From: Candidatus Woesearchaeota archaeon
GTDB lineage: Archaea; Nanobdellota; Nanobdellia; Woesearchaeales; SKIA01
Direction: 5' to 3'
Assembly: GCA_043771635.1 (NCBI GenBank)
Contig: JAYVHA010000006.1
Location: 1,668 to 65,667 of the forward strand
Length of the DNA stretch: 64,000 bases
Shown here: positions 2,891 through 26,464 of the stretch, piece by piece
How the letters are laid out: each line of letters opens with the position of its first letter
Position numbering within the stretch: position 1 is the stretch's first letter
Notes under the pieces: model-generated
Databases searched by the model: none
What the model was told of the DNA's origin: nothing
Seen by the model: the letters and a program-made list of their open reading frames with translations, nothing else
Translations under genes and position numbers: made by a program

Positions 2891-4111
2891 TTACTTTTTC
2901 TTGCGTGAGCGGCGGAAAACAACGAATCCGATAACAACTAATACCGCTACTACTATTACAACAATTATGCCTGAACCGCCGCTACTTGCTTTTGCTGGCG
3001 CAACAACCGAGAGTTGCACAGGAACTGAGTATGGCTGGTTTAGTGCGTCTCGATAGGTGAGTGTTCCTTTAAGAGCCGCAGTTTCTCCAGTTGGTTTGAT
3101 GGTAAATTCTGCAGTTTGGAAGTCGTCACTGTCAATGTTTCCAACATAGACTTCTGTGCGACCACTTACGGTGTATCCGTCTGCCGCTGCAACACTTACT
3201 TCTGCAAACTTAACTTGGGAGAGGCCTTTGTTAATAATGCGCGTGAGCACAATAAGCTCTTTTTCATCCGCACTGCGCGTGACGCGATCAATAAGCACTG
3301 TTACGTCTGGCTTCGCGTGTACTAGTATTCCAACTGTTTCTGTTTGCGTTACTTCTGTGCCATCAGCATTCATGAATGTAAACGTTAAGGGAATGCGTGC
3401 GATTCCACTTTGCGCTTCAGGATCAGCAACAAGCTGGAAGCGGAATGTTGTTTGCGCGCCGCCTTCGATGCGCGGAAGTGTTTGCTTGGTTGTTGTACCA
3501 ATAGTCGCTAGGTCGGTGTCCGCAAGGTCTAGCGAAACTGTAACGTCGCGAAGGGTACTGGCTTGCGCATTGCGAACAGTTACTTCAAACTGTGACTGTG
3601 AACCTGGAATAATCTCCGCCGGAGTTGTTCCAGCTTGAGTTACTGTAAGTACGCTGTTAGAAGTGCGAACTTGCATTGACACTTCGTTTGAAATGTATGA
3701 AATGCCGTCCGTTGTCATGCGAATTGGAAGTGTATAAGTGCCGTCCGTTGCAGCAGTATCAACTACAAGCTTAATGCGCGTTACGTAGCTGCTTGCGGCC
3801 GCAATAGGACCAACGTTAACACTCTCGTCTTGCGGTCCAACTGGAGTGAATGGATATGACGGATCCACAACTATTGTAACGGCTGGCGACGCGACGCGTC
3901 CACCGTTTGTGATTTGCACCCAAGCTTCGACAATGTCGCCAGGTTGCGCTGGCGTTGGTTCGTACTTTAGAAGTGTGACTGCGTAGGACACGCTGTCAGG
4001 ACTTGCGGCACTTGCGAGCGTTGCGCTAATTCCAAGTAGCAGTACAAATACTGCGAGTGCAATCGGAATTCGATTTTTTGGTAATGGTGCGTTTTTCATG
4101 CGTGGCCTCAA
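2891..4111 (-). CDS. exported repeat protein with C-terminal TM anchor and basic tail (ABC-exporter associated)
   Basis: 406 aa. Signal peptide (PIALAVFVLLLGISATLASAAS), beta-rich Ig/CARDB-like repeats, C-terminal TM (IIVVIVVAVLVVIGFVVF) and RRSRKKK tail. Confidence 0.55.
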   Translation of the reverse strand: MRPRMKNAPLPKNRIPIALAVFVLLLGISATLASAASPDSVSYAVTLLKYEPTPAQPGDIVEAWVQITNGGRVASPAVTIVVDPSYPFTPVGPQDESVNVGPIAAASSYVTRIKLVVDTAATDGTYTLPIRMTTDGISYISNEVSMQVRTSNSVLTVTQAGTTPAEIIPGSQSQFEVTVRNAQASTLRDVTVSLDLADTDLATIGTTTKQTLPRIEGGAQTTFRFQLVADPEAQSGIARIPLTFTFMNADGTEVTQTETVGILVHAKPDVTVLIDRVTRSADEKELIVLTRIINKGLSQVKFAEVSVAAADGYTVSGRTEVYVGNIDSDDFQTAEFTIKPTGETAALKGTLTYRDALNQPYSVPVQLSVVAPAKASSGGSGIIVVIVVAVLVVIGFVVFRRSRKKK

Positions 4112-6831: not shown

Positions 6832-7614
6832 ATGATATCCACTTTTCACAAGGAGCCAGAACTTGTGCTACACCAAGGTAGTTGCTTGGATGTACTAAAG
6901 CAGATTCCTGAGGCATCAGTTGATCTTATATTTGCTGATCCACCTTACTTTCTGTCCAATGGAGGCATTTCTTGCCAGGCTGGAAAGATGGTTTCTGTCA
7001 ATAAGGCCGAATGGGACAAGTCTCAAGGCTTTGAATCAGATGTCGCTTTTACTGAACAATGGATACTAGCCTGTCGACGGGTGCTTGCTCCCAACGGCTC
7101 TATTTGGATTTCCGGAACACAGCACAATATCCACATTGTAGGTTTTCTTCTTCAAAAGCATGGCTTCAAAATATTGAACGATATTGTCTGGTTCAAACCA
7201 AACGCTCCTCCGAATCTTGCTTGTAGATACTTTGCGCATTCGCACGAAATGGTTATTTGGGCTCGGCAAACTGAAAAAAGTAAACACCTCTTCAACTACG
7301 AGTCTATGAAACAACGAGAAGACCGTCTCAGTCCAGCTGGAAAACAGATGAAAAGTGTCTGGAGTATTAATCTTACACCCCCGTCAGAGAAAGCTGCCGG
7401 CAGGCATCCAACTCAGAAACCAGAAGAGCTTCTTCGAAGAATTATTCTAGCCACAACAATTAAAGGCCAAACAGTGCTCGATCCTTTCAATGGTTCAGGC
7501 ACCACAGGCGTAGTAGCCAAGAAACTAGGTAGAAAGTATATCGGAATTGATATGGAGCCTGCATATTTGAACTTAACAATTAAACGTTTGAAACTGACCC
7601 GAACAGATTTATAA
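6832..7614 (+). CDS. DNA methyltransferase, beta-class (N6-adenine or N4-cytosine)
   Basis: Motif IV DPPY (IFADPPYFLSN) near the N-terminus and SAM-binding motif I (LDPFNGSGTTGVVA) near the C-terminus. This circularly permuted beta-class order matches DpnA/MboIC/HinfI-type enzymes. Confidence 0.85.
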   Translation: MISTFHKEPELVLHQGSCLDVLKQIPEASVDLIFADPPYFLSNGGISCQAGKMVSVNKAEWDKSQGFESDVAFTEQWILACRRVLAPNGSIWISGTQHNIHIVGFLLQKHGFKILNDIVWFKPNAPPNLACRYFAHSHEMVIWARQTEKSKHLFNYESMKQREDRLSPAGKQMKSVWSINLTPPSEKAAGRHPTQKPEELLRRIILATTIKGQTVLDPFNGSGTTGVVAKKLGRKYIGIDMEPAYLNLTIKRLKLTRTDL

Positions 7615-7636
7615 ACGACTTTAAGCTCATAACTTT

Positions 7637-8464
7637 GTGGGAGTAAAAACAGTTAAGTTCCTGAAGTGGGCTGGTGGCAAGGAAATGCTTCTGCCTCAGC
7701 TAGAGCCTTTCTTTCCTAAAGATATTGATAGATATATCGAGCCGTTTCTTGGTTCTGGTGCTTTATTTTGGCACATAGCTACTACTCGAAAGCCTAAAAC
7801 AGTTATTCTTGCAGACACAAACGAGGAGCTAATTAACGTATATATCCAAGTAAGAGATTCTGTTGAAAAATTAATTCGTTCTCTTGAAAAAAGAAAATTA
7901 GCCCACTTTGCCAACGAAAATTATTATTATGAAGTTAGAGCGGAGCTACCAAGTAAACTTAATCCCATCGAACGAGCTTCTCGTTTCATTTATCTTAATA
8001 GAACTTGCTTCAACGGTCTTTATCGTGTAAATTCTAAAGGTGAATTTAACGTTCCCAAAGGCAGTTACAAGAATCCCAATATTGTTCAGACCGATAATTT
8101 GCGTGAAGCATCAAAACTTTTGCAAGGAGTAAGTATTCTTTGTACACCATTTCAGGTAACTTTACGCAAAGCTAAACCGGGAGACGTCGTATACTTAGAT
8201 CCTCCTTATCACCCTTTGAAGCCAACTAGTTTTACTTCTTACTCAGTCAATATTTTTGGAGAGAAAGAACAACAAGACTTAAAAGAAGAATTTGACCGGC
8301 TGGTAAATCTTGGCTGCACCATCATAGAAAGTAATAGCGATATGCCATTTATTCGAAATCTTTATACGAATTATAAACTGTCTACAATTCTTGCCAAAAG
8401 GTTGATCAATTCTAAATCGGCAGCACGAGGAAATATCAACGAGGCAATCATACATAATAAATAA
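7637..8464 (+). CDS. Dam-family (alpha-class) N6-adenine DNA methyltransferase
   Basis: FLKWAGGK motif at the N-terminus and DPPY (VYLDPPYHP) motif. Low-GC coding region. Probable GTG or other non-ATG start. Confidence 0.85.
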   Translation: MGVKTVKFLKWAGGKEMLLPQLEPFFPKDIDRYIEPFLGSGALFWHIATTRKPKTVILADTNEELINVYIQVRDSVEKLIRSLEKRKLAHFANENYYYEVRAELPSKLNPIERASRFIYLNRTCFNGLYRVNSKGEFNVPKGSYKNPNIVQTDNLREASKLLQGVSILCTPFQVTLRKAKPGDVVYLDPPYHPLKPTSFTSYSVNIFGEKEQQDLKEEFDRLVNLGCTIIESNSDMPFIRNLYTNYKLSTILAKRLINSKSAARGNINEAIIHNK

Positions 8465-8542
8465 AGTATAACTCAGAATATCGAACGACTATTTATAGTA
8501 GAATTAATAACCATTATCTAAAGCGTAAGCTAAACTAATAAT

Positions 8543-9154
8543 TTATTCCTCTAAATACCAAAGCGCTTTCCGTTCAGCTCGATACTTTTTACTTTTCTTG
8601 TTCTCTAAATTAACATATTTTGAGGCGGGCGGTTGACCGTTGCAAACACTCATGCACAAATTATCAATTTCTTTAGGCCCATCTAGAAATTGTCGTACCC
8701 AACCTTGTAAAAATAAGTTCGACGGTTCGAATTTACTTTCTTTATGATAACCATACTCTTGTTCAATATGGAATAATTGTGCAAGATATCCTGTAACGAT
8801 TAGCTTGTTTAGGTGATGTTCAAATTTCTCTTTTGAAAGTTTTTCAAGCTCTTTTTCAGGATCACTTCCATAAAAAATGTTGTCGAAAGCAATAAGCAGA
8901 TCTTTTTTCAGATCAGGTCTACTTCTGACTCTTAAGTTAAGGTCTATCATAAGGCGAAGATGATTAGGCTTAAACCTGCGTTCTCCTTCTTTAATCCATA
9001 TTTGGAAATTTCTATTTATATCATAGCTTTCAAAGCGTTTAGATAGTATTGAAGGTCGAAATACATATACTTCCGTATCCCCATCAATGAAGACAACTTT
9101 ATTGTTGTCAAATTCAAGGTTGATTATAATTTCAAATAGTTTTTCTTTAAGCAT
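8543..9154 (-). CDS. hypothetical protein, candidate restriction endonuclease (by position only)
   Basis: 203-aa ORF, about 30% GC, convergent with the two MTases. No clear nuclease motif beyond a weak D...E.K pattern (IDGDTEVYV...EGERRFK). Confidence 0.3.
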   Translation of the reverse strand: MLKEKLFEIIINLEFDNNKVVFIDGDTEVYVFRPSILSKRFESYDINRNFQIWIKEGERRFKPNHLRLMIDLNLRVRSRPDLKKDLLIAFDNIFYGSDPEKELEKLSKEKFEHHLNKLIVTGYLAQLFHIEQEYGYHKESKFEPSNLFLQGWVRQFLDGPKEIDNLCMSVCNGQPPASKYVNLENKKSKKYRAERKALWYLEE

Positions 9155-9527
9155 CTAAATCTAATTGTTGATATAGTTAGTATATATTACTATTGTAACT
9201 AATTTATTTAGACAAATAAGTAATTCTCCGACGCGATTTAGAATATAAATGGAATTGAAGTATTAAGAATTAATTATTCGGCGGCTTAGCCGCGCCAGCC
9301 AACGAATGGCGCAAACTCACGGAAAACGTTGCGAGTGCAACGATCTAAAGAAGCAACTTGTAGATACTAAAACTTAAGGAGATATACGTATGGAGGAAAG
9401 TTACCACGGTGGACTCGAAGAAAGACTAATCAAAGAAGGCAGTTAGTCGGTGACGGATTGACACCAACTGAATAATGGCGCCTAAGGTCTGCTCTCAACA
9501 TAAGCATTTAGTACATTAACAAAAATA

Positions 9528-9677
9528 CTATTGCACCACCCAACGACCTGTCTTTGGACCGCCCTCTCGAATAATCACTCCTTTTTTTAGATTATTGATG
9601 TGATATCGAGCGCCTTCCTCTGAAATAGCTAGTAGCTGAGCAAGATGTGCTGTTGTTGCTTTCGGATGTTCCCTCAT
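9528..9677 (-). pseudogene. N-terminally truncated paralogue of the small wHTH gene at 9846..10115
   Basis: Minus-strand translation gives MREHPKATTAHLAQLLAISEEGARYHINNLKKGVIIREGGPKTGRWVVQ, which parallels ILELLRQNPVMRTAELAVETGLTPKGVEYHLTKLKRDNLLSRVGGRKEGKWVVE. The in-frame upstream region (to about 9740) carries an SKTT-coding 12-nt tandem repeat but no start codon. Confidence 0.35.
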
Positions 9678-9845
9678 AACTGCAAGTATCAGCTCCTTAG
9701 GATTGTTACTGGTAGTCTTACTAGTAGTCTTACTGATAGTTTCTAGGGTAGAATCATAGTGGAAACAGCAAAAAAAGCTCTAGCTTAAACGCAACCAGAC
9801 TACTTTCTTAGGTTTTTAGACATAACTTTGGAGTGTGCTGCACAG

Positions 9846-10115
9846 TTACTCAACCACCCATTTACCTTCTTTACGTCCGCCCACCCTCGAAAGCAAGTTA
9901 TCCCGCTTCAATTTGGTAAGATGATACTCTACACCTTTAGGCGTTAGTCCCGTCTCTACGGCGAGCTCTGCTGTTCTCATCACAGGGTTTTGCCTTAATA
10001 ATTCAAGAATTATTTCCCTAGTCTTTTCCCTAGTCTTTTCCCTAGTTTCTTGGGTAGTTGTCCGTTTAAATGTGGTTATAAACCAGTGTTCAATAATTGC
10101 GAATATTGAATGCAA
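9846..10115 (-). CDS. small winged-helix transcriptional regulator with N-terminal TREK tandem repeat
   Basis: 89-aa ORF with an HTH (RTAELAVETGLTPKGVEYHLTKLKRDNLL). The 12-nt tandem repeat at 10017-10049 encodes TREKTREKTRE. Confidence 0.55.
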   Translation of the reverse strand: MHSIFAIIEHWFITTFKRTTTQETREKTREKTREIILELLRQNPVMRTAELAVETGLTPKGVEYHLTKLKRDNLLSRVGGRKEGKWVVE

Positions 10116-10539
10116 CTTATCTGGTGCATATTCAGGTACATTGTATCCAAAATAAAAATAGCATGAATGAAATCCTCAACCATAGCAAAGCTACAGTAAA
10201 CCCTGAAAGAAAAGAATATTAATCATTTGCAGCGTTCGGCATATCAAAGAACGCTAAATAGAAAAAAACTTAGAATTCTAAATAACCTTCCTTATACGCC
10301 CAAACTAATAACAACCCAAATAATACTATAACTGCAATAAATACTCCTGCTAAAAGACCATTGTAAACTGAGTTCCATAAAATATTTACTGCCTGCTGAA
10401 TAGGGTCCATAGTTTGTTTCTCCGTGCCCCGCACAAGCTAATAGTGTCGTAAAAAACATATAAATGTTTCCAATATACCATATTCTAGCATATAAATTAA
10501 TTATTAACTTAAGGAGAGAAAGAACAAGTAGAAAAAAAA

Positions 10540-10625
10540 TGGCGCCACAGCCCGGATTTGAACCGGGGACTCCTTGCGGAACAGGATTAGCAATCCTGCG
10601 CAATACCAGGCTATGCGACTGTGGC
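10540..10625 (-). tRNA. tRNA-Ser (anticodon GCT), CCA encoded
   Basis: Reverse complement folds as a class II tRNA: acceptor GCCACAG/CTGTGGC, anticodon stem CAGGA/TCCTG with loop TTGCTAA (anticodon GCT), long variable arm TTCCGCAAGGAGTC, T-arm CCCGG-TTCAAAT-CCGGG, discriminator G followed by CCA. Confidence 0.85.
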
Positions 10626-10690
10626 AGATATCCTAGGACTTTCTCTGGAACGATAGTTTTTTTATAAAGGTTTTCGCAAAAAAAGACTTA

Positions 10691-12619
10691 ATGCACCTTC
10701 CCGAGCGGCTTTTTAGGCCCTCACAGCAACCAGTTCTTTCAGCGCGAGCCCTACTAGCAGCGTCAATAGCACTGCTAATTTTATGCCTTGTTTTACCATT
10801 GACCAACGCTGAGGAACTCGAAACGCCAGTAGACCTAATCGCAGGAGACTACCTTGACGCGATGGAGCTTGACGTGGAGGTGCGCGGCGACGCGAACATC
10901 ACATTAACTGGAACTGGCAAGGGAGAGGAGCTGAAAGCAACTGTTTCGTATGTGCCAGCCGCCGCAAAAGAAGTTACTGCAATTCCTGATCCTGTTTCTT
11001 TAGAGCCGTTAGTTTTTGTGTGGAACTCAGTGACTGCGGGCAAGTACGGTTACCGCTATGACGCAACAGTAACTAGTTTTGCAGACATTCCACGATTAAC
11101 CGAGCCAATTCCTTACCCTTTCACTGCGCCGCCCGACATCGCAGTTTTTCTGAAACCGCAAAAGTACACTGACACAAATCCGCAGATTCGCGCGCTTGCA
11201 ACTGAGCTTGTAGGTACTGAGAAAGACGCAACAAAAATAGTTTACAATCTGGCGGCATGGACGCGTACAAACGTTAAGTACGATCTTCAATCCATCGCAG
11301 CGGACGCAACAAAGTCTTCATCGTGGGTGTATGCAAACCGCGAAGGCGTGTGTGACGAGTTAACAGCGCTGTTCATCAGCCTCTCAAGAGAAGCAGGAAT
11401 ACCTGCAAGATTCGTAAGCGGCCTCGCGTACACAACTTTGCCAGAGTTCCCGCAACCGTGGCAAGCGCACGGCTGGGCAGAAGTTTGGCTGCCTGATCAT
11501 GGCTGGGTACCAGTCGACATTGCTTACGGCGAAGTATTCTGGCTTGACGCAGCGCACATTCCAATAACTCGAACTGCGGACGCGCGCGCAAGTGGCGCAG
11601 ACTACACTCTTCGCGCGCGCGGACTGACAATGCAGCCGAGTCCTCTCGGTACAGATGTTATTGTTACTGCTGAGCGCGGCTCCGTTGTTGAAAAATTAAC
11701 TGCGACGCTCAGCCCACAGTACTCAAAAACCGGCTCGCGCAGCGGTAACGTAATAATTGCGAGCGTCACGAATGCTGCGCCGTACACAATAGTCACGGAC
11801 GTGACGCTACTAACAACAGCGGAAACAGTACTTGAAGACGCGCGCAGCCAAATGGTTTTCATTCCTGCAGGAGCAACACGCCTAGTGAGATGGCGCGTAC
11901 AGATGGGCGAGTTTGACAAAGGCTACACATATACTGTGCCGTTCGGCATTGCCGTGCGGCGCGGCACAGGGGCGAACACCAAAGTTACTGGAACCGCGCA
12001 AGGAACTGTGTATCCAATGCCACTGCCGGACGACGCGGGCGAAACGGGCGGAAGCCTTGAAGTAATTTGCACTGAGCCGCCTGCGCTGTACACAGGCGAA
12101 ACAACGCACGTGTCTTGCACGGCGCACGGCGCAACTGTTTGCGCAGACAAGTGCTTGTTCGGCGCCGCGAATTTGTCGTTTACTGCCGGAGCGCCGGGCG
12201 CGTATCCACAAACAGTTAATGCGAGTGGGAACGGCGCGCGCGGTCACGCACTTGTAACTTTCATGGTAATTGAGCCGCCGAAACCAAACATTACTGTGAA
12301 CATTTCACCAATTTTTAGTATTGACGACGAAGCACTTCTGATGTTTTCCGTGCACTCGAGCGCTATGACTGATGTTACCGTGGTTGCGGAGAGCGGCTTA
12401 GTTACTCAGACATGGTCGCAGCCGGACCTGAGCGACAAGGACTTTGCTCTAAAATTCCCGGCTGCGCTTCTTAACGCAGGAGAGAATACTTTCAAAATTC
12501 GCGTCGAAGGCTCAGACAAAAATGGTAAGCGAGTATCTGCTACCGCAACTATAAACGCATCTCTGCCAGCGTCTCGTTGGGAGCGCATGCAGCTCTTCTT
12601 CATTCACCTATTCGCATAG
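10691..12619 (+). CDS. transglutaminase-like cysteine protease domain protein, membrane-anchored or secreted
   Basis: N-terminal TM/signal; transglutaminase core with catalytic Cys (REGVCDELTALFISLSREAGIPARFVSG) and His/Asp (HGWAEVWLPDHGWVPVD). Confidence 0.7.
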   Translation: MHLPERLFRPSQQPVLSARALLAASIALLILCLVLPLTNAEELETPVDLIAGDYLDAMELDVEVRGDANITLTGTGKGEELKATVSYVPAAAKEVTAIPDPVSLEPLVFVWNSVTAGKYGYRYDATVTSFADIPRLTEPIPYPFTAPPDIAVFLKPQKYTDTNPQIRALATELVGTEKDATKIVYNLAAWTRTNVKYDLQSIAADATKSSSWVYANREGVCDELTALFISLSREAGIPARFVSGLAYTTLPEFPQPWQAHGWAEVWLPDHGWVPVDIAYGEVFWLDAAHIPITRTADARASGADYTLRARGLTMQPSPLGTDVIVTAERGSVVEKLTATLSPQYSKTGSRSGNVIIASVTNAAPYTIVTDVTLLTTAETVLEDARSQMVFIPAGATRLVRWRVQMGEFDKGYTYTVPFGIAVRRGTGANTKVTGTAQGTVYPMPLPDDAGETGGSLEVICTEPPALYTGETTHVSCTAHGATVCADKCLFGAANLSFTAGAPGAYPQTVNASGNGARGHALVTFMVIEPPKPNITVNISPIFSIDDEALLMFSVHSSAMTDVTVVAESGLVTQTWSQPDLSDKDFALKFPAALLNAGENTFKIRVEGSDKNGKRVSATATINASLPASRWERMQLFFIHLFA

Positions 12620-14759: not shown

Positions 14760-14841
14760 TTATTCACTCATTCAGAGGTAATTTAATACCTCGTTTGCAG
14801 CAAAGATAAGCTATATATACGCCCCGTCTCGGTTTATATAC

Positions 14842-17451
14842 ATGAAGTGGTTCTCCGTCGGCATTCTGCTACTAGGCATGATTGGCGCAGTCAGCGCCCT
14901 CTCTGAGATTAATGTTGTCGTGTTTCCAGACATTCCAAACACTGTGTTCACTTACGACTTTATCTTTAGTAATTCGAACGCGTGTGGTGTTGTTCTGAAT
15001 GTATCGAGGAGCATAACTACAAACACTGTGGGTCGCGGCAACGCAACTCTGGATATTTCTGCTTTAACTAATCCGCCAGCATATCTTTGTACATACCGGG
15101 GCGGCATTCTTGTTAATACTCAAAGCTTAAACCCGAATGCATTCGCGTCAGGCAACGTTACAGCATCAAACGGCAGCGCTGGCTATCCAGCAATTTTTAC
15201 TTCGGCAACTAACCTCGCGTCTGGACTAATAAGCGCAAACATGATTACTTTAAGCGCAATTAATTCTAGTTTACTTAATACTACTAACGTCGGTACAAGC
15301 GGTCAACTGCTTGCACTAAACGCAAACCTAAACCAGTTTACTTGGGCTAATGGAGTTAGCTCGATACTAACTGATGCTATGTACGTCAATATTACTAACT
15401 TACAAACAAGTAACGCATCTACAAATGTAAGAATTGATACAATCAACACATCAATAGTTGGAACGCAAACAAACGTAACCGCGCTGCAAACTGTTCGAGA
15501 TGGAGTGTATGTTAACGTAACGGCGCTGCAAGGCGCGGGACCAGGCGTTTACTACTACCAAAACATCACCGACTTACAAATAAGCAACGCAAGCACCCAA
15601 ACAAGAATAAACACAGTAAACATAACAACACAAAACCTACTAACAACAAACAACACAATATTCGGACTAATACTAACACTAGGACAAAACGACACAAACC
15701 TAAACAACAGCATAAACGCAGTAAACACAAGAATAGATACAATAAACAGCACACTAGTAACAGTACAACAAAACATAACAGACCTACAAACAAGCAACGC
15801 AAGTACAAACACACGCATCAATACAATTAACTCAAGCAAAGGCAACGCGAGCCTCACCACGAACGGCACAGCAGGTTACCTCGCGCGCATAACATCAGGC
15901 AGCAATCTAAACAACAGCGCACTCTTTGACAATGGCACCGCAATTAGTTTAAACAATACAGTGCCAACACAACTTTTCGACGTGCAAGGAAACGCAAACA
16001 TAACTCGAATATATACAAACACACTTTGCTTAGGAGGCAATTGCTTACCTGCCGTTGGAAACGCATCAATAACCACAAACGCGACAGCAGGGTACCTAGC
16101 ACGAATTACTAACGGATCAAACATTAACAACAGCGCACTATTCGACAACGGAACAGCAATAAGCCTAAACAGCACAGTACCAACACAACTATTCGACGTG
16201 CAAGGCAACGCGAACATAACTCGAATATATACAACATCGCTCTGCCTTAGAGGAATGTGCTATAACCATACACTAGGGAATATTAGTAGCATGAACGGCA
16301 CAGCTGGCTGGCCGGCAGTTTTCACCAACTCTACAAACATCAACGCAAGCCTCATTACGTCTGAGATGGTGTCCTTGCACACACTTAATTCTACAACAAT
16401 TAATACAACGACAAACGGTACTGTCCGAGGACAGCGCTTAACACTCGGCGCAAACTTTGGACAATTCGAATGGAGAGATCCTGTCAACATCACAATTATT
16501 ACAGCAACAGGCGCTACAAATTGGAATAAACCTATCGGAGCAAACTTCACTGCAGTTTTCATCTGCGGCGGAGGCGGAAGTGGCGGAGGCGGAAGCACAG
16601 CTAACCAAAATCAGGTTCGTAGCGGAGGAGGCGGAGGCGGAGGCGCCATGTGCGTCACGAAAACGTTCAACATCGCTGATCTCACCGACCCTGTTGTTGT
16701 AACAATTGGAGCCGGCGGAGCCGCTGTTGCTGCTGCCATAGATGGTAGCTTCGGCGCGTCCTCGACTTTCGGTGGCCCCATTACTGCATTTGGCGGAGGA
16801 GGAGGTGCTGCTAACGCCGCAGGAGCAGGAGGAGGAGGAGGAGGAGGTTGCGCAACACGAGGAACCAGTGCGACCACAAACACAGGTGCCACGGGCGGCG
16901 CGTGCATGATTGCTGCCGTAGCGGCGAATACCGCATCCGTGCACGGCGGTGGAGCAGGAGGAGGAACCGCAGGAGTCGGCGTCGTCACCGGACCAATGGC
17001 ATGGCTTGCAGGCGCAGGCGGCGGAACCGCTGCTACAACCGGATTAGTTAATGGCGGTGCAGGCGGCGGTTCACAATATAGTGCTGCAGGTGGAGGAGGT
17101 GGAGGAGGAGTGGATGGAGCAACACCAGGAACCGTACGCGACGGCGGAGCCGGAGGGGACTCAGGCGCTGAAGTCATCGCCGCAGGAGGCGGAGGAACTG
17201 CGGGAACAGGAGCAGGCGCTTGCGGCGGAGTAGGAGATGGCCAAGTTGGAGCTACAGGTTACTTTGGAGTCGGCGGTAAAGGAGGAGGCGGAGGAGGATC
17301 TAAATCAGCACTCGCTACAAACGGTTGCACTGGTGGAGCCGGCGGAGCTTTCGGAGGAGGTGGAGGCGGAGGAGGAGGAGGAACCAACGCTGGAGTCGGT
17401 GGCGCAGGTGCTAAAGGAGGCGATGGTGGAGCAATTATAATATCATGGTAA
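14842..17451 (+). CDS. secreted Asn/Thr-rich repeat protein with poly-glycine C-terminal region of about 330 aa
   Basis: Signal peptide (MKWFSVGILLLGMIGAVSA). Tandem NITDLQTSNASTN(V/T)RI(D/N)TIN repeats. A duplicated module of about 55 aa (NGTAGYLARIT.GSN.NNSALFDNGTAISLN.TVPTQLFDVQGNANITRIYT). The C-terminus is over 50% Gly (GGN codon runs 16560-17400). Confidence 0.6.
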   Translation: MKWFSVGILLLGMIGAVSALSEINVVVFPDIPNTVFTYDFIFSNSNACGVVLNVSRSITTNTVGRGNATLDISALTNPPAYLCTYRGGILVNTQSLNPNAFASGNVTASNGSAGYPAIFTSATNLASGLISANMITLSAINSSLLNTTNVGTSGQLLALNANLNQFTWANGVSSILTDAMYVNITNLQTSNASTNVRIDTINTSIVGTQTNVTALQTVRDGVYVNVTALQGAGPGVYYYQNITDLQISNASTQTRINTVNITTQNLLTTNNTIFGLILTLGQNDTNLNNSINAVNTRIDTINSTLVTVQQNITDLQTSNASTNTRINTINSSKGNASLTTNGTAGYLARITSGSNLNNSALFDNGTAISLNNTVPTQLFDVQGNANITRIYTNTLCLGGNCLPAVGNASITTNATAGYLARITNGSNINNSALFDNGTAISLNSTVPTQLFDVQGNANITRIYTTSLCLRGMCYNHTLGNISSMNGTAGWPAVFTNSTNINASLITSEMVSLHTLNSTTINTTTNGTVRGQRLTLGANFGQFEWRDPVNITIITATGATNWNKPIGANFTAVFICGGGGSGGGGSTANQNQVRSGGGGGGGAMCVTKTFNIADLTDPVVVTIGAGGAAVAAAIDGSFGASSTFGGPITAFGGGGGAANAAGAGGGGGGGCATRGTSATTNTGATGGACMIAAVAANTASVHGGGAGGGTAGVGVVTGPMAWLAGAGGGTAATTGLVNGGAGGGSQYSAAGGGGGGGVDGATPGTVRDGGAGGDSGAEVIAAGGGGTAGTGAGACGGVGDGQVGATGYFGVGGKGGGGGGSKSALATNGCTGGAGGAFGGGGGGGGGGTNAGVGGAGAKGGDGGAIIISW
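16560..17400 (+). repeat. GGN codon low-complexity tract (poly-Gly coding) inside 14842..17451
   Basis: Runs of ggaggaggaggagg/ggcggagg; the antisense frame yields a spurious poly-Pro ORF. Confidence 0.7.
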
Positions 17452-17480: not shown

Positions 17481-20075
17481 GTGTGGCGCTACCTCATTAT
17501 TCTCCTGCTTGCGATGCCGATTGTTTACGCGGACGAAGTTCTGTTATTTGCAGGTCGAGAATCAGTATTAATTACAGGCGCACAACTTATTGTAAACGAT
17601 AAATCATTAGTTGTGAGCGCCGTGAACCCGGCGAACGACACCATAATAGATAGAGATAGTTTTGATCCAACTGACTTTGATGTAATTGCGCTCGTGGTAA
17701 GCGTTCCGAGCGAGTTCCCTGACGGTACAAGTATCGCATTCGTCGCAAACATCACACTGCCAGCGATTGGCGGGCAAAGCAATGTAGTATTGGGATACAA
17801 CACTTCTACAAGCGGCACGGCCACGCTTTATTACAATCCAAACACAACATCCTACGCAGGCAATTGGACTTGGTTTGCGCAGCTGGATAACAGTATTACG
17901 AGCGGTCTGCGCAATGTAATTGTTAAGGGTAGCGCGACCACAGTCTTCGCCTCGGCCTCGATTAACCCGAACGCAAGTTATGTGCGCGCGGACACTGTGC
18001 TCACTGTGGTAAACTTAACTAGTAATGGTCCCGAAAGTCTAGCGGAACTTAACGCGTCATACAACGCCGTTGTAAATTCACAGTTTACTAATCGCACTGG
18101 CTCGAACTCGCTTGCAGGCTTAACCTTTACAGGCTCTAATTGGCAAAGCAACTTTGCGATTTCAACACTCGGTGGCGTTGGACTTTGGAACGCATCACTG
18201 CTCAGCGCACTTGACTTCTTCTACACGCCGACGTCAAACTATCGAGAGTTTTTTGTATTCGGCCGCATGAACGTTACAGCAATAACAGCTAATCCTGACT
18301 CCATTGCCGCCACCGACTTTACCACCATAAGTTGCGCGGTACAAGATCAAGAATCATCGTACGCAGTGACGGGCGCAAACGTCAGCTTCTATCGTAACAA
18401 TACGTTCCTCGGATGGAACCTAACAAACGCGACAGGCAACTCAACACTCACCTTTTCAATAAATTCAAGCGGACTTTGGAACATAACGTGCATAATACAA
18501 AACCAGTCAAACATACAATACTCGGTTGGCGGCGCTCCTAATGCTTCAACAATGGTTAACGTAACCAACTTAGGACCAGTTTTCATAGCAGGCATTAATG
18601 ACGCGAGCGACACTACAAACACCACTAACATGGGCGAACTCGTAACTTTCATGACTGGTGCAAATGATCCGGAACTTGACGAGTGGTATTTACTAATTTG
18701 TGGTTCCGCTGGAGTGACTGCGGGTTCATGTAATGGATTCGAATACTGTCGCAGCGGATATACTTCAAGCGGCGCTAATGCCAATTGTTCTGTTAACACG
18801 ACAGGCTATACTAATCGCACATATCCATGGTTTGCGTACCCCTGCGACAACACTTCAAGCTGCGGCGTAAGTAACAGCGCCACAAGTCCATTCGTAATTA
18901 ACCACGTTCCGATTGCGTATCCGCACATAACCCCGGCGAGCCCTACTGCTGCACAGAACTTAACCTGCGTCATAAACGCCACCGACCCTGACCCGGGCGA
19001 CACAGTTTCAGGCAACTATAGCTGGTGGCTTCGCGACGAGAGCGCAGGACCGTTCGACCCAATTATAGGGCAAACTGGAAGCGTCCTGCCAAACAGTCAG
19101 TACGATTCAAATGATCAAGTGCTTTGCTCAGCGCTGCCAATCGACCAGCACAATTTTGCCGGGACAATAGTGAACAGCTCAAGCGTAACTATTGCACAAG
19201 GCGCACTAAGCGCAAGCGCGACACTGAGTGCGCCAAACATGACCGTTCTATATTCAGTAGTACTGAGCGTTTCATGCACTGTTGCAACGGGCGACTCGGA
19301 GGACGTTACGCTAACAATTGAAGATGATCGCACAGGAGGATTTGCGCAATCAAGTGCGAGCCCTGCGGACGTTTCTGTAAACACTTCAAGCATCTCACTA
19401 GGCACTCTTAGTGGTACAAGCGCAACGCATCAAGTCAGAATTACTGGAGAAACTACAGGCACTTATCAATTTCGCGCACGCTGCACAACCACCGACACAA
19501 CTCCTGTGACTGCAACGAGCACGGCTCAAACAGTAACAGTTCTCGCGGATTTATCCGCACCAATAATATCTCTGCTTGATACAACGCCAACAAATCAGTC
19601 AGTTCAATTTGATTGGTCGACTGATGACCCGTCTGACAGTCTTGTCGAGTACGGCCTCACGCCCGCGCTTGGCCTGTCTGTTTTCAATCCGACTCTTGTA
19701 AATGTACACTCGATTAACATTACTGGCCTACTAGAGAAAACAGACTATTTCTACAACATCACTAGTTGTAACACGGACGGCTTCTGCTCAACAGTAGGTC
19801 TATTTTCAGTGCGTACACTCGGCTCTGAAGTAGGCTTCCCGTATGAAGGAGGCTATTTCACAGGTACTTTTGTAGAGCGCGGTCCGGAAGCAAACGTCGC
19901 TATTAACGGCAGCATTACAAAGGGTGACGTTTTCGAGATATTCCTTGAAACACCGCAAGGCCTCGACAGCCAAGACGAAGTCACTGTAATCATAACGGTT
20001 AAAGGTAAGGAGATACGTAAACGCATTACGCTACCATATACAATTAAGTCACCGGAGACTCCAATATACCCATGA
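17481..20075 (+). CDS. secreted surface protein sharing the repeat module of the giant protein, with an FN3-like domain
   Basis: Signal peptide MWRYLIILLLAMPIVYA. Module ...SFYRNNTFLGWNLTNATGNSTLTFSINSSGLWNITCIIQNQSNIQY is homologous to the SFYRNGT...CNISNQT units of the 7707-aa protein. An FN3-like segment (QSVQFDWSTDDPSDSLVEYGLTP...YFYNITSCN). Dense NxS/T sequons. Confidence 0.6.
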   Translation: MWRYLIILLLAMPIVYADEVLLFAGRESVLITGAQLIVNDKSLVVSAVNPANDTIIDRDSFDPTDFDVIALVVSVPSEFPDGTSIAFVANITLPAIGGQSNVVLGYNTSTSGTATLYYNPNTTSYAGNWTWFAQLDNSITSGLRNVIVKGSATTVFASASINPNASYVRADTVLTVVNLTSNGPESLAELNASYNAVVNSQFTNRTGSNSLAGLTFTGSNWQSNFAISTLGGVGLWNASLLSALDFFYTPTSNYREFFVFGRMNVTAITANPDSIAATDFTTISCAVQDQESSYAVTGANVSFYRNNTFLGWNLTNATGNSTLTFSINSSGLWNITCIIQNQSNIQYSVGGAPNASTMVNVTNLGPVFIAGINDASDTTNTTNMGELVTFMTGANDPELDEWYLLICGSAGVTAGSCNGFEYCRSGYTSSGANANCSVNTTGYTNRTYPWFAYPCDNTSSCGVSNSATSPFVINHVPIAYPHITPASPTAAQNLTCVINATDPDPGDTVSGNYSWWLRDESAGPFDPIIGQTGSVLPNSQYDSNDQVLCSALPIDQHNFAGTIVNSSSVTIAQGALSASATLSAPNMTVLYSVVLSVSCTVATGDSEDVTLTIEDDRTGGFAQSSASPADVSVNTSSISLGTLSGTSATHQVRITGETTGTYQFRARCTTTDTTPVTATSTAQTVTVLADLSAPIISLLDTTPTNQSVQFDWSTDDPSDSLVEYGLTPALGLSVFNPTLVNVHSINITGLLEKTDYFYNITSCNTDGFCSTVGLFSVRTLGSEVGFPYEGGYFTGTFVERGPEANVAINGSITKGDVFEIFLETPQGLDSQDEVTVIITVKGKEIRKRITLPYTIKSPETPIYP

Positions 20076-20425
20076 GCGCCCACACCCCACTAATACTATT
20101 AATAGTCGGCCTTAGCATAACAGCGCTTGGAATAGGAGTATTCTATGCCCAGGAGCAGCGTTTCGCACAAGGACAACGCTCTCAGCTCGATGCCGTAGTT
20201 TTAGACGCGCGCCCAGAGGAGCTCGTAGTTGTGAGTATAGTAGGACAAGACGTGTCCGCAGGCGACGTTAATACTCTTCGCATTCAAGTGCGCTATGACG
20301 GCGAGGGAGAACTGCCGCTTAACGAAACCTATATCCAAGTTAAGACCAAAGACTCAATTGCTGACCTTCAGTATCGTAACGGTACTACATACCGCAGCGT
20401 TCCTGATGGGTTTTACACACGTTAG
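20072..20425 (+). CDS. small membrane protein, translationally coupled to the upstream surface protein gene
   Basis: 117 aa with an N-terminal TM (LILLIVGLSITALGIGVF). The start overlaps the upstream stop by 4 nt. Confidence 0.35.
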   Translation: MSAHTPLILLIVGLSITALGIGVFYAQEQRFAQGQRSQLDAVVLDARPEELVVVSIVGQDVSAGDVNTLRIQVRYDGEGELPLNETYIQVKTKDSIADLQYRNGTTYRSVPDGFYTR

Positions 20426-22888: not shown

Positions 22889-25800
22889 CTAATCGCTACG
22901 TCGTGACTTCTTGCGGCTTCGCATATAGACTAGACCTGCGCCGAGAACAGCTAGGACTAGTACTATTGACACCCAAAAGACAGCTCCGTTGCTACCCTTT
23001 ACCGGAGCAGCAACTGGTTTTGCTGTTGGCTTAGTCTCAACTGGAGCTGCTGGCGCCGCTGCTGGCGGTGCCGCGGGAGCTGCCGGTGTCGGCTGCGCAA
23101 CAGCAGGCTCTGACGGGCTTGCCGGCGCAGGTGTTGGCGTTACCGTTGCGGTAGGCTTACCAGCGATTGCGAAGTAACTAAAGTATGGGGTTTCAGCACT
23201 GAAAGTTACTGTCGTTGCATCACTACTCACTACTGTTGCAGGGATTTCTACCCATCGATCAGTGTAGCGCATAAGTACAACGTTGCCCTCTCCAATGTTG
23301 TTACTCGTAAGCCAGCTCTTTGGCACCGCAAAGGTCATGGTTGCTGAGCGTACTGCCTCGTCTGTTAATCCTGTTGGCGTAACTTGCAAGAACATATACA
23401 CTGTCTGTGCCGGTGCAACTAGTGTGCTTGGACGCTCCGTTAGGGAGCGCACTTCAATGTTAAAGTTACTCGACGTCTGGTCGAATGCAATTGCAAACCT
23501 GGTTACTGGCATGCCACTGAGTGCAATAGGCGCCTCAACAGTTTCACCTGCATTAACGCGAGCCCATGATAGTCGCGTTGTAACGCCTGGAGCGCCGCTA
23601 ACAGTTGTTCCGGGACGGCTGCTACTTCCGCCGCCACCGCCACCACCGCTTGATGCTCGAAGCGTAGTGAAGTCAATCTGCGCGCTCGATGTGGTTGCTG
23701 AACCACTTGACGAGCAGCGTACGTAATACGTGTATGATGTGAAGGCAGATAGTCCAGTAACAGATGTTTCGTGGCTTGTCGCGTTCGTTGTTGTGAACAC
23801 ATTAGTCATTGCACTGTACGCTTGGTCTGTTGTACTGTAGCGACACTCCGCAACCAGATCAGTATTAATAGTGAGTGTTGCTGCATTTCGCGTCGCTGCG
23901 CCATCTTCACCACTCATTACTGGCGCTGATGCGCTAACTGTAAAGTTAAGTGCGTAAGGCGTGTTTACATTACCTGCATTGTCAGTTACGGATACAGTCC
24001 AGTTCCAAGTACCAGCCGCAAGAGTGCGGTTAATCGATACATTTGTACCGTTAGTAAAGTTGCCTGAACCATTTGCAGTTCCGTTTAGGTATAGCGTATA
24101 GTTAAGCTCGGTAGCGAGTGCGTCAATACCTGTAAAGTTAAATGGTACAACTGATGTAGTGACGTTTGTATTGTTGATCGGCTGCAATAATGTTGCTGTT
24201 GGCGCGCCAGTGTCTACAAAAATTACTATTGGCGAACTTTCATTGTAACGACCAACATCGTCAGTAACATTTACAATAATTGTATGCGTGCCCTGCGACA
24301 AGGCTGTAAGGTTTACTGAAGCGTTGTTTCCTTGCGTTATATTACCATTCCTGTTCAATGCGCCGTCTACCATAATTGAATAGTTTAGATAGCTTGCTAC
24401 GTCGTCATTTGCAGTAAAGAATACGAGCGGCGTTGTGTCGTTCGTACGATTACCAGTAATTGGCGCAAACACTGTTAAAGTTGGGTTTACTAAGTCTACT
24501 GTTAACGTGTAATAATTGTTACCGAAGGCACTATTAATCGAGTCGATTGCACAAACGGTAAGATTAACGAAGGTGTAGCTCCCCCCTAAGCCAGGGTACA
24601 AGTCAGCCAAAGGTACAGAAGTTACTGTGTTGTTCAGAACAGAATAAGGAGTTATCTCTGTACAAGTCGTATCGCCAAGATTTGCTATACCTATACTAAT
24701 ATTGCTTTGTAAATTGTCGGTAACGTTTACTGTCCAAACAAGAGTTCCAGCGAGGTTAAGCGTATTATTTGCGAGTGAACTATTTACTACGACAACTGGC
24801 GCCTCGTCGTCAACAATCATATCGTACGATGTGGATGTCTTGTTATTTACTCCGTCGCTAACTTCCACATAAGTAGTCAATACAACACCGACAGGTTGCG
24901 CAGGCAGAATTATCACTGAAGGCACGCCTTCTGTTGCAGCCGCAGTGACTGCCGCAGCATCGTTAATCCATAAAGTATAGGTCAATCCAGTTTGGAAAGT
25001 GTCAGTAACGGTAAAGTTAAACGTTGGAGTAGTGTTACTAACAAATACGTTAGGCCCGACTGTTACACCATCTAAAAATCCAGTTGCTCCGCCATCAATG
25101 ACAGGTTCGATTGCGTCAATAATAATGTCCTTGTTAAGAGATAGATAGTTAGTTGGGAAGAATGGCACTGTTAGGTTCGCTGGAAGCAAACCAGTTGCAA
25201 CGTCGAAGATAGTTCCTCCATTCAATGTTAGCGAGTTTACTGTGTTACTGTAACCTAAGTCGGAAGCATTATCACCTAGTTGTACAGTATATGTAAAAAT
25301 AGCAGTCGTGGTATCGTCGCTGACATACGTTGCGTTGCCATCGATTGCGCCAAGTTCAAGCTCCAGGTGCGGCACGCCTGTAATTGTTACTGGCGCGCTA
25401 AAGCCTACTGTAAAGTTAATTACGGTACCAGCTCCATAAATTCCGTTTACAAGTCCTATGCCCGGGAATGGTGACGGCGAGTCAATATCAGTAATAGTAA
25501 TCAGCACCGCATTGACAGCAATAGCATTTCCGTTTCCAAGTGAACCAGCAGCGCCAGGCGCAGCAAGTGTCCGGTTTGCAAAGTCTCCTGTGATAACACT
25601 CGCCAAAGTACCTCCGTTTAAGGTTAAGGAAGAGGTTGCTACATAGTCAAGATCAGCAACAGCATCATTGAAAGTAGTTGTGTATTGGAACAGCAATGTA
25701 GTGGTTCCGTTTCCGCTAACGTAAGTCGCATTGCGATCCGGAGCCGAATCAAAATTTAGTTCGATTCTTGGCGAACCAGTTACTTCGATTGCATCATCAA

Positions 25801-26464
25801 AAGTAACTGTTACGTTTAGAATTATGTTTGCGCCGTAAGTAGCGTCTGCATCTGGAGTATTAACCCCAGTTACAAACGGTGCAATAGCATCTACTTCGAT
25901 ATTGCGACCGTCACTAAGTGAGCCAGGTCCTACTGCTGGCAGCGTGTTTATTGCAGTCGCACCCGATAAGTTTGCAATAATTGTTGCACCGTTCAAGGTG
26001 AATGCGTTTACTGATGTATAGTCGAGCGCAGTTGTATTGTCTCCTGCGACTGTTGTATACTGGAATTCAAGCACGTTCGATGTTGTGTCACCACCAACAT
26101 AAGTCGCGTTCTTGTCCAAACCCGGCGCGAAGTCTAGCTCCAACCGCGGCGTTCCAGTAATGTTCACACTTTCGTTATACTGAACATATATGCTGATTAA
26201 AGTACCAGTACCATAAGTACCGTCACCAAGCGTAGTGTTAATGAGAATAACTTCTGGTTCCGCGAACACAGCAGGCACGGTGAACAGGACTGAGAAAACG
26301 ACTATGGCAGCGAGTGCCAGGTAGGAGAACGGTCGATTCATACAAATATACAATTCGCAATCGTTTAAATTAGTAACTCTATATATCGAGGTCACCCGAG
26401 AGTAGGGAAGTGTCCCTGCGCCGGGACATAGCATATAAGCCTCTTTACCAAAGCAAGACAGCAT
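22889..26464 (-). CDS. large cell-surface protein with tandem domains, Pro/Ala-rich stalk, C-terminal TM anchor and basic tail
   Basis: 1191 aa. Signal/TM near the N-terminus. Four repeats of about 130 aa (NATYV.G.TT..L.FQYTT...D...LDY). An FN3-like region, a poly-Gly/Ser stretch, a PAPAAPAAP linker, and C-terminal FWVSIVLVLAVLGAGLVYM plus RSRKKSRRSD. Confidence 0.6.
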   Translation of the reverse strand: MLSCFGKEAYMLCPGAGTLPYSRVTSIYRVTNLNDCELYICMNRPFSYLALAAIVVFSVLFTVPAVFAEPEVILINTTLGDGTYGTGTLISIYVQYNESVNITGTPRLELDFAPGLDKNATYVGGDTTSNVLEFQYTTVAGDNTTALDYTSVNAFTLNGATIIANLSGATAINTLPAVGPGSLSDGRNIEVDAIAPFVTGVNTPDADATYGANIILNVTVTFDDAIEVTGSPRIELNFDSAPDRNATYVSGNGTTTLLFQYTTTFNDAVADLDYVATSSLTLNGGTLASVITGDFANRTLAAPGAAGSLGNGNAIAVNAVLITITDIDSPSPFPGIGLVNGIYGAGTVINFTVGFSAPVTITGVPHLELELGAIDGNATYVSDDTTTAIFTYTVQLGDNASDLGYSNTVNSLTLNGGTIFDVATGLLPANLTVPFFPTNYLSLNKDIIIDAIEPVIDGGATGFLDGVTVGPNVFVSNTTPTFNFTVTDTFQTGLTYTLWINDAAAVTAAATEGVPSVIILPAQPVGVVLTTYVEVSDGVNNKTSTSYDMIVDDEAPVVVVNSSLANNTLNLAGTLVWTVNVTDNLQSNISIGIANLGDTTCTEITPYSVLNNTVTSVPLADLYPGLGGSYTFVNLTVCAIDSINSAFGNNYYTLTVDLVNPTLTVFAPITGNRTNDTTPLVFFTANDDVASYLNYSIMVDGALNRNGNITQGNNASVNLTALSQGTHTIIVNVTDDVGRYNESSPIVIFVDTGAPTATLLQPINNTNVTTSVVPFNFTGIDALATELNYTLYLNGTANGSGNFTNGTNVSINRTLAAGTWNWTVSVTDNAGNVNTPYALNFTVSASAPVMSGEDGAATRNAATLTINTDLVAECRYSTTDQAYSAMTNVFTTTNATSHETSVTGLSAFTSYTYYVRCSSSGSATTSSAQIDFTTLRASSGGGGGGGSSSRPGTTVSGAPGVTTRLSWARVNAGETVEAPIALSGMPVTRFAIAFDQTSSNFNIEVRSLTERPSTLVAPAQTVYMFLQVTPTGLTDEAVRSATMTFAVPKSWLTSNNIGEGNVVLMRYTDRWVEIPATVVSSDATTVTFSAETPYFSYFAIAGKPTATVTPTPAPASPSEPAVAQPTPAAPAAPPAAAPAAPVETKPTAKPVAAPVKGSNGAVFWVSIVLVLAVLGAGLVYMRSRKKSRRSD

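Follow-up and report, generated by a model that had tools for sequence, protein, structure and literature searches.

Mosaic adhesive trimer (MAT) fibres, known from Bdellovibrio bacteriovorus, carry a signal peptide and an invariant N-terminal domain thought to lie on the predator surface; they are trimeric, and their swappable tips bind prey epitopes (PMC10769870). In the cyanophage Pam3, a TNF-like and glycine-rich domain (39% glycine), which resembles S16 gp38 and ALK, has been given a role in host-receptor recognition on structural grounds (PMC9608196). This protein, gp24, and gp33 of the mycobacteriophage Bxb1 have been described as polyproline-II/polyglycine-II bundles (PMC13243192). Moreover, cryo-tomography of a DPANN co-culture revealed bulb-tipped fibres, "reminiscent of bacteriophage tail fibers", on host cells (PMC11329633). 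In this work we analysed the gene of a fibre protein (14842..17451, + strand) embedded in 64,000 nucleotides (nt) of contig JAYVHA010000006.1, from a Candidatus Woesearchaeota archaeon. This whole stretch is hereafter called the window, and nucleotide positions refer to it unless another contig is named.

According to our analysis, with a probability of roughly 0.6, the gene encodes a MAT-like cell-surface adhesin of a DPANN-type archaeon, built from parts of phage tail fibres and bearing a swappable tip of the Pam3/Bxb1 type. We favour this reading because the protein is predicted to be secreted, the gene appears cellular and lies at a syntenic locus, and the tip has been exchanged while the base was kept. 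The domain family and the architectural principle were already known; the archaeal, cellular and putatively glycosylated setting is new, as is the evidence of cassette exchange with archaeal viruses.

The C-terminal tip (amino acids (aa) 547-869; 16480..17448, +) comprises a predicted beta-sandwich core and about 13 glycine-rich segments. Pfam assigned PF21722 (Gly_rich_2) to aa 554-773; the whole protein scores 30.7 bits and the domain taken alone 34.6 bits, against a curated gathering threshold of 24.3 bits. Probing with aa 540-869 retrieved 37 homologues, and 24 of the 38 aligned sequences exceed that threshold. Their non-glycine motifs are in register (W-x-K-P-x-G, V...GGGGxGG, VTIGAGG, S-x-FG...LTA-GGGG, and a terminal strand ending with W), and the alignment of the tip with protein P0013 reaches the last residue (...AIIISW versus ...VVVISW). 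The tip alignments score 10-25 standard deviations (SD) over composition-preserving shuffles (z = 10-25). Modelled only as a monomer, from the homologue alignment with AlphaFold2, the tip reached a predicted local distance difference test (pLDDT) of 83.7 and a predicted template-modelling score (pTM) of 0.86, with eight beta strands and glycine segments that are neither helix nor strand. When this model was compared with the PDB by Foldseek, the best match was Bxb1 gp33 (9D93 chain Q, 9d93_Qa; E 3.5e-8), followed by the Pam3 tail fibre (7YPX; E 1e-4), and the sequence profile of the tip found the same two phage proteins (9d93_Qa, 1e-11; Pam3, 6e-4); the match to the ALK glycine-rich domain was marginal (E 0.06-0.5, probability 0.15-0.18). 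As judged from these alignments and from the model, the tip is a folded, conserved Gly_rich_2 domain of the receptor-binding type, whose glycine segments probably form polyglycine-II, by homology to Pam3 gp24 and Bxb1 gp33.

The close relatives of the tip found here are wholly viral. At E <= 1e-3, 231 predicted viral structures of BFVD match (best TM-score 0.73, 39% identity), many of them labelled as glycine-rich domain, minor tail or tail fibre proteins. Two tip homologues are fused to Phage_T7_tail and BppL_N, which are anchor domains of phage receptor-binding proteins, and one homologue is encoded on a phage contig that also carries genes for capsid, adaptor, holin and lysozyme. Hence the viral homologues that a preliminary description of this DNA had left to be looked for do exist, for the tip, both among the BFVD models and on the contig with capsid genes. 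Probing 50,697 GenBank phage records with both halves of the protein (tblastn, low-complexity filter on) retrieved no match, and a family pattern scan of IMG/VR no relative. The most phage-like portion of the protein is the very one that had been taken as silk-like.

The gene, as judged from gene order, heads a three-gene operon and is cellular, not viral. The second gene (17481..20075, +) begins 29 nt past the fibre stop and encodes an 864-aa secreted, sequon-rich protein with an FN3-like domain; the third (20072..20425, +) overlaps the stop of this partner by 4 nt and encodes a 117-aa protein with an N-terminal hydrophobic helix. The same trio follows the same ATPase gene in L086/L087 (where the fibre is P0006) and on the contig of P0002, and was not found in 80 other loci fetched. 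The partner has an orthologue at the same position both in L086/L087 (39% identity over 824 aa) and on the P0002 contig. The 117-aa protein matches Arch_flagellin (Pfam, E 0.007) and ArlG (E 0.01), both below threshold, and its L086 orthologue, 38% identical, is recorded as being of the Flagellin_arch type. At these orthologous loci the fibres keep the N-terminal domain and differ in their tips: the fibre of the window ends in a Gly_rich_2 domain and P0006 in SO2946-like_C, and the tip domain of P0002 is unassigned.

The base of the fibre starts with a putative Sec-type signal peptide (aa 1-19, MKWFSVGILLLGMIGAVSA, with LSE following the cleavage site; 14842..14898, +), which has a charged residue, a hydrophobic core and a small-x-small site, and whose region is modelled as a helix (aa 2-14). 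The A-x-A cleavage site is conserved, being VSA before L in the fibre, AYA before I in P0002, AFA before L in P0006 and AYA before L in P0049; this, together with the hydrophobic N-terminus, agrees with the secretion proposed in the preliminary description. The following beta-rich domain (aa 20-103; 14899..15150, +), which on homology and modelling grounds we propose as the cell-proximal anchor, is shared by P0002, P0006 and P0049, and aa 1-121, signal peptide included, are 56% identical to the syntenic orthologue P0006. Furthermore, an exhaustive HMMER search revealed that this domain opens many further secreted proteins. It is lineage-specific, with no match in Pfam, PHROG or NCBIfam, and the Pfam scan returned no annotation for any tested protein beginning with it. 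In the AlphaFold model of aa 1-560, it is the sole part of usable confidence (six strands, pLDDT 60-79).

Between the base and the tip, internal alignment delimited four modules: M1 (aa 104-174; 15151..15363, +); the tail-fibre-type modules T1 (aa 336-407) and T2 (aa 408-479), in tandem and of 72 aa each (15847..16278, +); and M2 (aa 480-546; 16279..16479, +), which is related to M1 and joins the tip. T1 and T2 are identical at 57 of 66 aa (z = 45), with a period of 72 aa, that is 216 nt, and a nucleotide identity of 75% between 15841-16045 and 16057-16261. Each of them is closed by a Cys-x4-Cys pair, the common pattern being NGTAGYLARIT..NNSALFDNGTAISLN.TVPTQLFDVQG...C....C. They are homologous to the tail-fibre-like repeat GSGT.NY.P.WT....IGNS.IYQ.G.N(I/V)GIGT..P..KL.V.G...FCIG..C (HMMER E down to 1e-26), and three proteins with this repeat terminate in the Peptidase_S74 intramolecular chaperone. 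The duplication reported in the preliminary description is thus real, but its unit is of 72 aa and not of 55, and its likeness to tail fibres holds, more firmly than first suggested, given the homology to the repeat of fibre-like proteins bearing Peptidase_S74. A second related pair had been overlooked: aa 104-174 and 479-549, which flank the middle region, share 33 of 71 residues (z = 21, Smith-Waterman versus shuffles). A stretch related to M1 also occurs in the 2024-aa protein P0051.

A profile of the module copies, most of whose members are bacterial, matched only the Bdellovibrio MAT fibres in the PDB (8OJN, 7e-8; 8OND, 3e-7; 8OL4 and 8OML more weakly). The matches coincide with the capping-loop motif defined for these fibres, V-G-x-G-x-x-P-x-x-x-L, also written V-G-G/N-pi-x-x-P-x-x-x-L (PMC10769870); the motif of the fibre itself is degenerate (ISLNNTVPTQLFDV). 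With the whole protein, phmmer against the PDB sequences gave only coiled-coil matches at chance level. In a different protein, P0055 (858 aa), several canonical tail-fibre/MAT modules are found together with a signal peptide of the archaeal class III (type IV pilin-like), matched at a sub-threshold E of 7e-4; this suggests that archaeal cells have another means of mounting such modules.

Repeats, heptad frame and predicted helices define a coiled-coil stalk (aa 175-335; 15364..15846, +). In one heptad frame over aa 180-336, 57% of the a/d positions are hydrophobic, and on visual inspection the register shows no break between about aa 240 and 335; helices are predicted at aa 174-229, 239-282 and 285-332, with low confidence and in a monomer model. 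The stalk harbors four copies of a 21-aa motif (repeat family D4; 15385-15447, 15559-15621, 15685-15747 and 15769-15831, +), whose length equals three heptads. Three good copies of QNITDLQTSNASTNTRINTIN have pairwise identities of 15/22 and 18/21 (z = 11-12 versus shuffles) and the fourth is weaker (z = 4.7). They begin 58, 42 and 28 aa apart, all inside the one heptad stalk, so that the motif does recur, as had been noticed, but its copies are dispersed rather than in tandem. The heptad register and the trimeric nature of the relatives make a trimer likely.

Fibres on two tailed-virus contigs (L085, L088) share the stalk sequence. It is 59% identical to that of P0007, and 45-53% to those of P0004, P0003 and P0010. 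The P0003 fibre gene lies directly 3' of terminase, portal, protease, cement and HK97-type capsid genes (L085), and that of P0010 between head and tail-tube genes (L088). P0004 and P0007 occur in L083 and L089, element-like contigs of small uncharacterised open reading frames (ORFs). An S24 repressor-like gene is present in one of the two, and scanning L083, which encodes P0007, with PHROG detected no virus hallmark. These sequence relationships indicate that the same stalk sequences move between archaeal cells and the tailed viruses of archaea. The fibre family is rare: a word search retrieved about ten proteins among 5.8 billion clusters, 15 relatives were found at E <= 1e-10 among 1.84 billion representatives, and patterns from the family alignment, scanned over the GTDB species representatives, retrieved none, which places the source genome and its close kin outside that set.

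We also observed that the stalk-family fibres P0003, P0005 and P0010 (L085, L088) and P0004, P0007 and P0009 (L083, L089) are all sequon-rich and have a hydrophobic N-terminal segment resembling a signal peptide or a signal anchor. Such segments occur even on the fibres encoded beside capsid, portal and tail-tube genes, where they are unexpected for virion fibres built in the cytoplasm. Furthermore, positions 1-930 of L085, 5' of the terminase gene, encode proteins of the Tet_JBP and TAGT families, which we take to be DNA base-modification enzymes.

The distribution of N-x-S/T glycosylation sequons sets the tip apart from the rest. There are 44 in aa 20-570, where 19.9 +/- 3.6 are expected by composition (maximum 33 in 2000 shuffles), i.e., about twice the expected frequency before the tip, and none in aa 571-869 despite 9 Asn and 41 Ser/Thr. 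Pfam and NCBIfam scans of the fibre retrieved no S-layer family, no C-terminal anchor and no PGF-CTERM signal, and NCBIfam no match for either the fibre or its 864-aa partner; the C-terminus of the fibre is the terminal beta strand of the tip domain. In this respect the initial impression that this is not a typical S-layer protein was correct.

The analysis itself shows the gene structure, the domain homologies, the confidence of the models, the sequon distribution, the synteny, the replacement of tips and the sharing with viral contigs. On the basis of these data we can depict the following scheme, in which we infer that the fibre is trimeric, displayed at the surface and glycosylated, that it serves as an adhesin, and what its ligand might be. 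The protein would be exported via Sec and its signal peptide cleaved, after which the N-terminal beta domain would hold the fibre on the envelope. The stalk, of about 160 residues, presumably heavily N-glycosylated and probably a trimeric coiled coil, would project the tip outward from the cell together with the four beta modules. The tip, a putative beta-sandwich with a glycine-rich, probably polyglycine-II, lattice and free of glycosylation sites, would bind the ligand, possibly the surface of the symbiont's host cell. Specificity would change via exchange of the whole tip, orthologous loci keeping the N-terminal domain, and the stalk and tip cassettes would be shared with virus fibres. In a wider version of this scheme, which we advance only tentatively, a DPANN episymbiont would recognise and hold its host via an adhesin derived from phage tail fibres, MAT-like and trimeric, whose polyglycine-II tip sets the specificity, and the symbiont lineage would share one pool of stalk and tip cassettes with its own, or its host's, tailed viruses.

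In principle, the gene might instead be a virion tail or neck fibre gene of an integrated or defective provirus, or a recent viral insertion. Such an origin would fit the identity of 45-59% between its stalk and fibres whose genes neighbour those for capsid, portal and terminase (L085, L088), as well as a tip family that is overwhelmingly viral and a low-GC island with methyltransferases and a tRNA-Ser 4-8 kb upstream. However, no virus structural or replication gene occurs within the 10 kb flanking the gene, its neighbours being housekeeping genes; the locus, with its partner genes and N-terminal domain, is syntenic in at least two other genomes; this domain is not a known virion-docking domain; and the secretion signal would be needless for a virion assembled in the cytoplasm. 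Hence we regard a viral gene as quite improbable, and provirus cargo in particular was rejected on the cellular neighbours and the conserved synteny. It is also unlikely, if less so, that the protein is a structural fibre of the glycocalyx or envelope (a spacer, a coat, or part of an appendage together with the pilin-like protein) having no specific ligand. The very dense sequons would suit such a role, as would the two operon partners, one a large, repetitive surface protein and the other small and archaellin/ArlG-like, the 320-aa unit of the former occurring at least 14 times in a giant surface protein of 7707 aa. Nevertheless, wholesale replacement of the tip on a kept base is what marks a specificity determinant, no other part of the fibre is free of sequons, and every characterised relative of the tip fold stands at the distal end of a receptor-binding fibre.

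As for the tip itself, the preliminary description had likened it to low-complexity fibrous proteins of the PE-PGRS or spider-silk kind, that is to a fibrous or disordered tail. Its composition (38% Gly, 18% Ala) is in line with that idea, and one viral homologue is labelled 'PE-PGRS family protein' in UniProt. We rejected it because the tip is, on the present evidence, a folded conserved domain with phage relatives: PF21722 scores above its cut-off, the non-glycine motifs and the terminal strand are conserved with scores 10-25 SD over shuffles, the eight-strand globular model is confident, and the homology extends to solved phage structures, so that this likeness is barely credible. No PE domain was detected in the Pfam scan (E <= 1), and the N-terminus is a signal peptide; silk terminal domains were absent under the same conditions, the repeat arrays are of only about 20-30 nt and the region is folded in the model; a collagen is discarded, there being no G-x-y periodicity; and membership of the ALK/LTK family is likewise discarded, PF12810 being absent from the Pfam matches at E <= 1 and the Foldseek E values being those reported above. 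Equally remote is an ice-binding surface like the polyglycine-II bundle of the snow-flea antifreeze protein. Polyglycine-II bundles are indeed known in antifreeze proteins (PMC13243192), and one distant module homologue has a sub-threshold match to a grass antifreeze beta roll, but no antifreeze protein was matched by sequence or fold in the PDB search, and all the close relatives are phage tail proteins.

Some points weigh against the MAT-like adhesin that we favour. The AlphaFold model of aa 1-560, based on 11 sequences, has a pLDDT of 42, too low for a fold search. The fibre sequence alone has no direct match to the MAT structures, the link passing via intermediates and a mostly bacterial profile, and no recognisable membrane or S-layer anchor was found in the fibre, the attachment to the cell being assumed. 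The lifestyle proposed for the source organism derives only from the 55% identity of one neighbouring protein to Woesearchaeota/Nanoarchaeota genomes and from shared synteny. Finally, the function of Bxb1 gp33 has not been established, and its neighbour gp30 is non-essential (PMC12646305).

The gene itself is a single ORF of 869 aa plus a stop, taken from the ORF list, and its extent and its final residues AIIISW are as given in the preliminary description. On inspection of the sequence, a possible archaeal TATA-like element (GCTATATATAC; 14811..14821, +) lies about 26 nt 5' of the ATG, which would imply a leaderless or short-leader mRNA. The C-terminal third was said to be more than half glycine; it is indeed glycine-rich, but the share over aa 556-869 (the last 314 residues) is 38%, with 18% Ala (Gly and Ala together 56%) and 13 runs of at least three glycines. 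The Gly codons of the tract are mixed (66 GGA, 34 GGC, 18 GGT and 1 GGG; longest single-codon run 6) and Tandem Repeats Finder retrieved only small arrays of about 20-30 nt; for these reasons the tract is not a simple DNA repeat. Two findings speak against an artefact of assembly: the Gly-run positions are conserved across the 37 homologues, and an identical protein is recorded from assemblies of NCBI, ENA and Logan. Because GGN codons are read in reverse, the complementary strand yields artefactual poly-Pro ORFs, as anticipated; they are present in the ORF list, one example being 16611..17177 (-), antisense of the Gly-codon tract.

The window is archaeal chromosome, with RtcB, SerRS, Orc1/Cdc6-type, TatD-like and archaellin genes, and the neighbours of the fibre gene encode a transglutaminase-like protein, a PIN/KH ATPase, surface proteins and SerRS. 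The PIN/ATPase/KH protein encoded 5' of the fibre gene is closest to metagenome-assembled genomes (MAGs) of Woesearchaeota/Nanoarchaeota (up to 55-56% identity), and nine loci of such MAGs share the pairing of transglutaminase and ATPase genes.

Other observations concern the surroundings of the operon. A giant ORF of 7707 aa (38829-61952, -) has FG-GAP repeats and three domains of the Laminin_G_3 (concanavalin-like lectin) type, and resembles the giant surface proteins that episymbiotic DPANN archaea possess. The N-terminal unit of the operon partner (about 320 residues, aa 43-362) is present in at least 14 copies in this ORF (39465-53348, -), with 33-46% identity, and because of this recurrence a single surface system may include both the fibre operon and the giant protein; by eye, the L086 orthologue of the partner seems to hold two copies of the unit. 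Large proteins that are secreted or anchored in the membrane are unusually frequent in the window and take up a large share of its coding capacity (22889-26464, -; 2891-4111, -; 10691-12619, +; 36070-37137, +). Among them are one of 1191 aa and a secreted one of 406 aa, both with a C-terminal anchor, and a transglutaminase-like protein. A low-GC island (positions 7000-11000, 35-40% GC versus about 47%) ends at a tRNA-Ser gene (10540-10625, -). The translations of two of its ORFs (6832-7614 and 7637-8464), read by eye and not scanned for families, are DNA methyltransferase-like, a third one (8543-9154, -) is unannotated, and the island is probably a restriction-modification island. Lastly, ARAGORN called a 92-nt tRNA-Phe (18800-18891, -) inside the coding sequence of the 864-aa protein; the Rfam gathering threshold gave no confirmation, and the call is probably a false positive.

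Little is known of how DPANN archaea find and hold their hosts, and few molecules are candidates for this role. The present locus supplies one that is concrete and can be tested, and, given a constant base with a tip that differs among close genomes, tip identity could be compared with host identity. A phage glycine-rich tip domain, solved so far only in virion proteins, has been recruited to a secreted archaeal cellular protein; if the wider scheme outlined above is true, the fibre would be the first counterpart in archaea of the MAT system of Bdellovibrio. To our knowledge, a Gly_rich_2 or polyglycine-II receptor-binding tip on a cell has not been reported earlier, and our literature search gave no paper naming the family. 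There is also a caution for annotation, since glycine-rich tails of this kind are folded domains that are easily mislabelled as PE-PGRS, collagen or low complexity, labels of the sort that several viral tip homologues bear in UniProt.

The comparison with the known systems can be summarized as follows. The principle of a polyglycine-II lattice presenting variable distal loops to the receptor is shared with gp38 of Salmonella phage S16 and with the T2/T6-type gp38 (PMC9608196, PMC13243192); these, however, belong to another family with another supporting domain, and neither a sequence nor a Foldseek match to the tip was found. The glycine-rich domain of ALK/LTK (7LRZ, 7NX3, PF12810) similarly has a TNF-like core with ligand-binding polyglycine-II helices, and Pam3 gp24 superposes on that of ALK (PMC9608196); the marginal Foldseek match speaks here of resemblance and not of membership. 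By sequence as well as by fold, the best match is gp33 of Bxb1 (9D93 chain Q), called the "tail wing brush"; it shares the motifs P-x-G...V...GGGGxGG, GGGGGGG-x-Y/A and G-x-GGAGG, but it is a protein of 267 aa attached to the virion via gp30/gp31, and the TM-scores are only 0.43 and 0.58. Pam3 gp24 (7YPX/7YFW) has the same order of an alpha-helical coiled-coil shaft followed by a TNF-like beta-sandwich with a glycine-rich loop lattice, a nearly equal glycine content (39% versus 38% here) and GGGGxGG motifs; it differs in that it belongs to a virion, measures about 280-290 aa, counts 12 glycine-rich motifs, lacks a signal peptide and has gp25 as its dedicated chaperone, whereas the tip described here, of about 320 aa, is carried by a much longer fibre, for which a gp25-like chaperone was not identified. 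Compared with the MAT fibres of B. bacteriovorus (Bd3182, Bd2133 and Bd2439; 8OJN, 8OND and 8OL4), the present fibre is archaeal and laden with sequons, has a degenerate version of the capping-loop motif, possesses a long heptad coiled-coil stalk not mentioned for MAT fibres in PMC10769870, and ends in a Gly_rich_2 tip, which is not reported among the MAT tips, some of which are TNF-like. In common with them, it is predicted to be a cellular secreted fibre in which the signal peptide is directly followed by a beta-rich N-terminal domain conserved among its own relatives and which continues as a long fibre of tail-fibre-type modules, possibly of the capping-loop family, and, as in the MAT fibres, its variable C-terminal tips have been exchanged in evolution.

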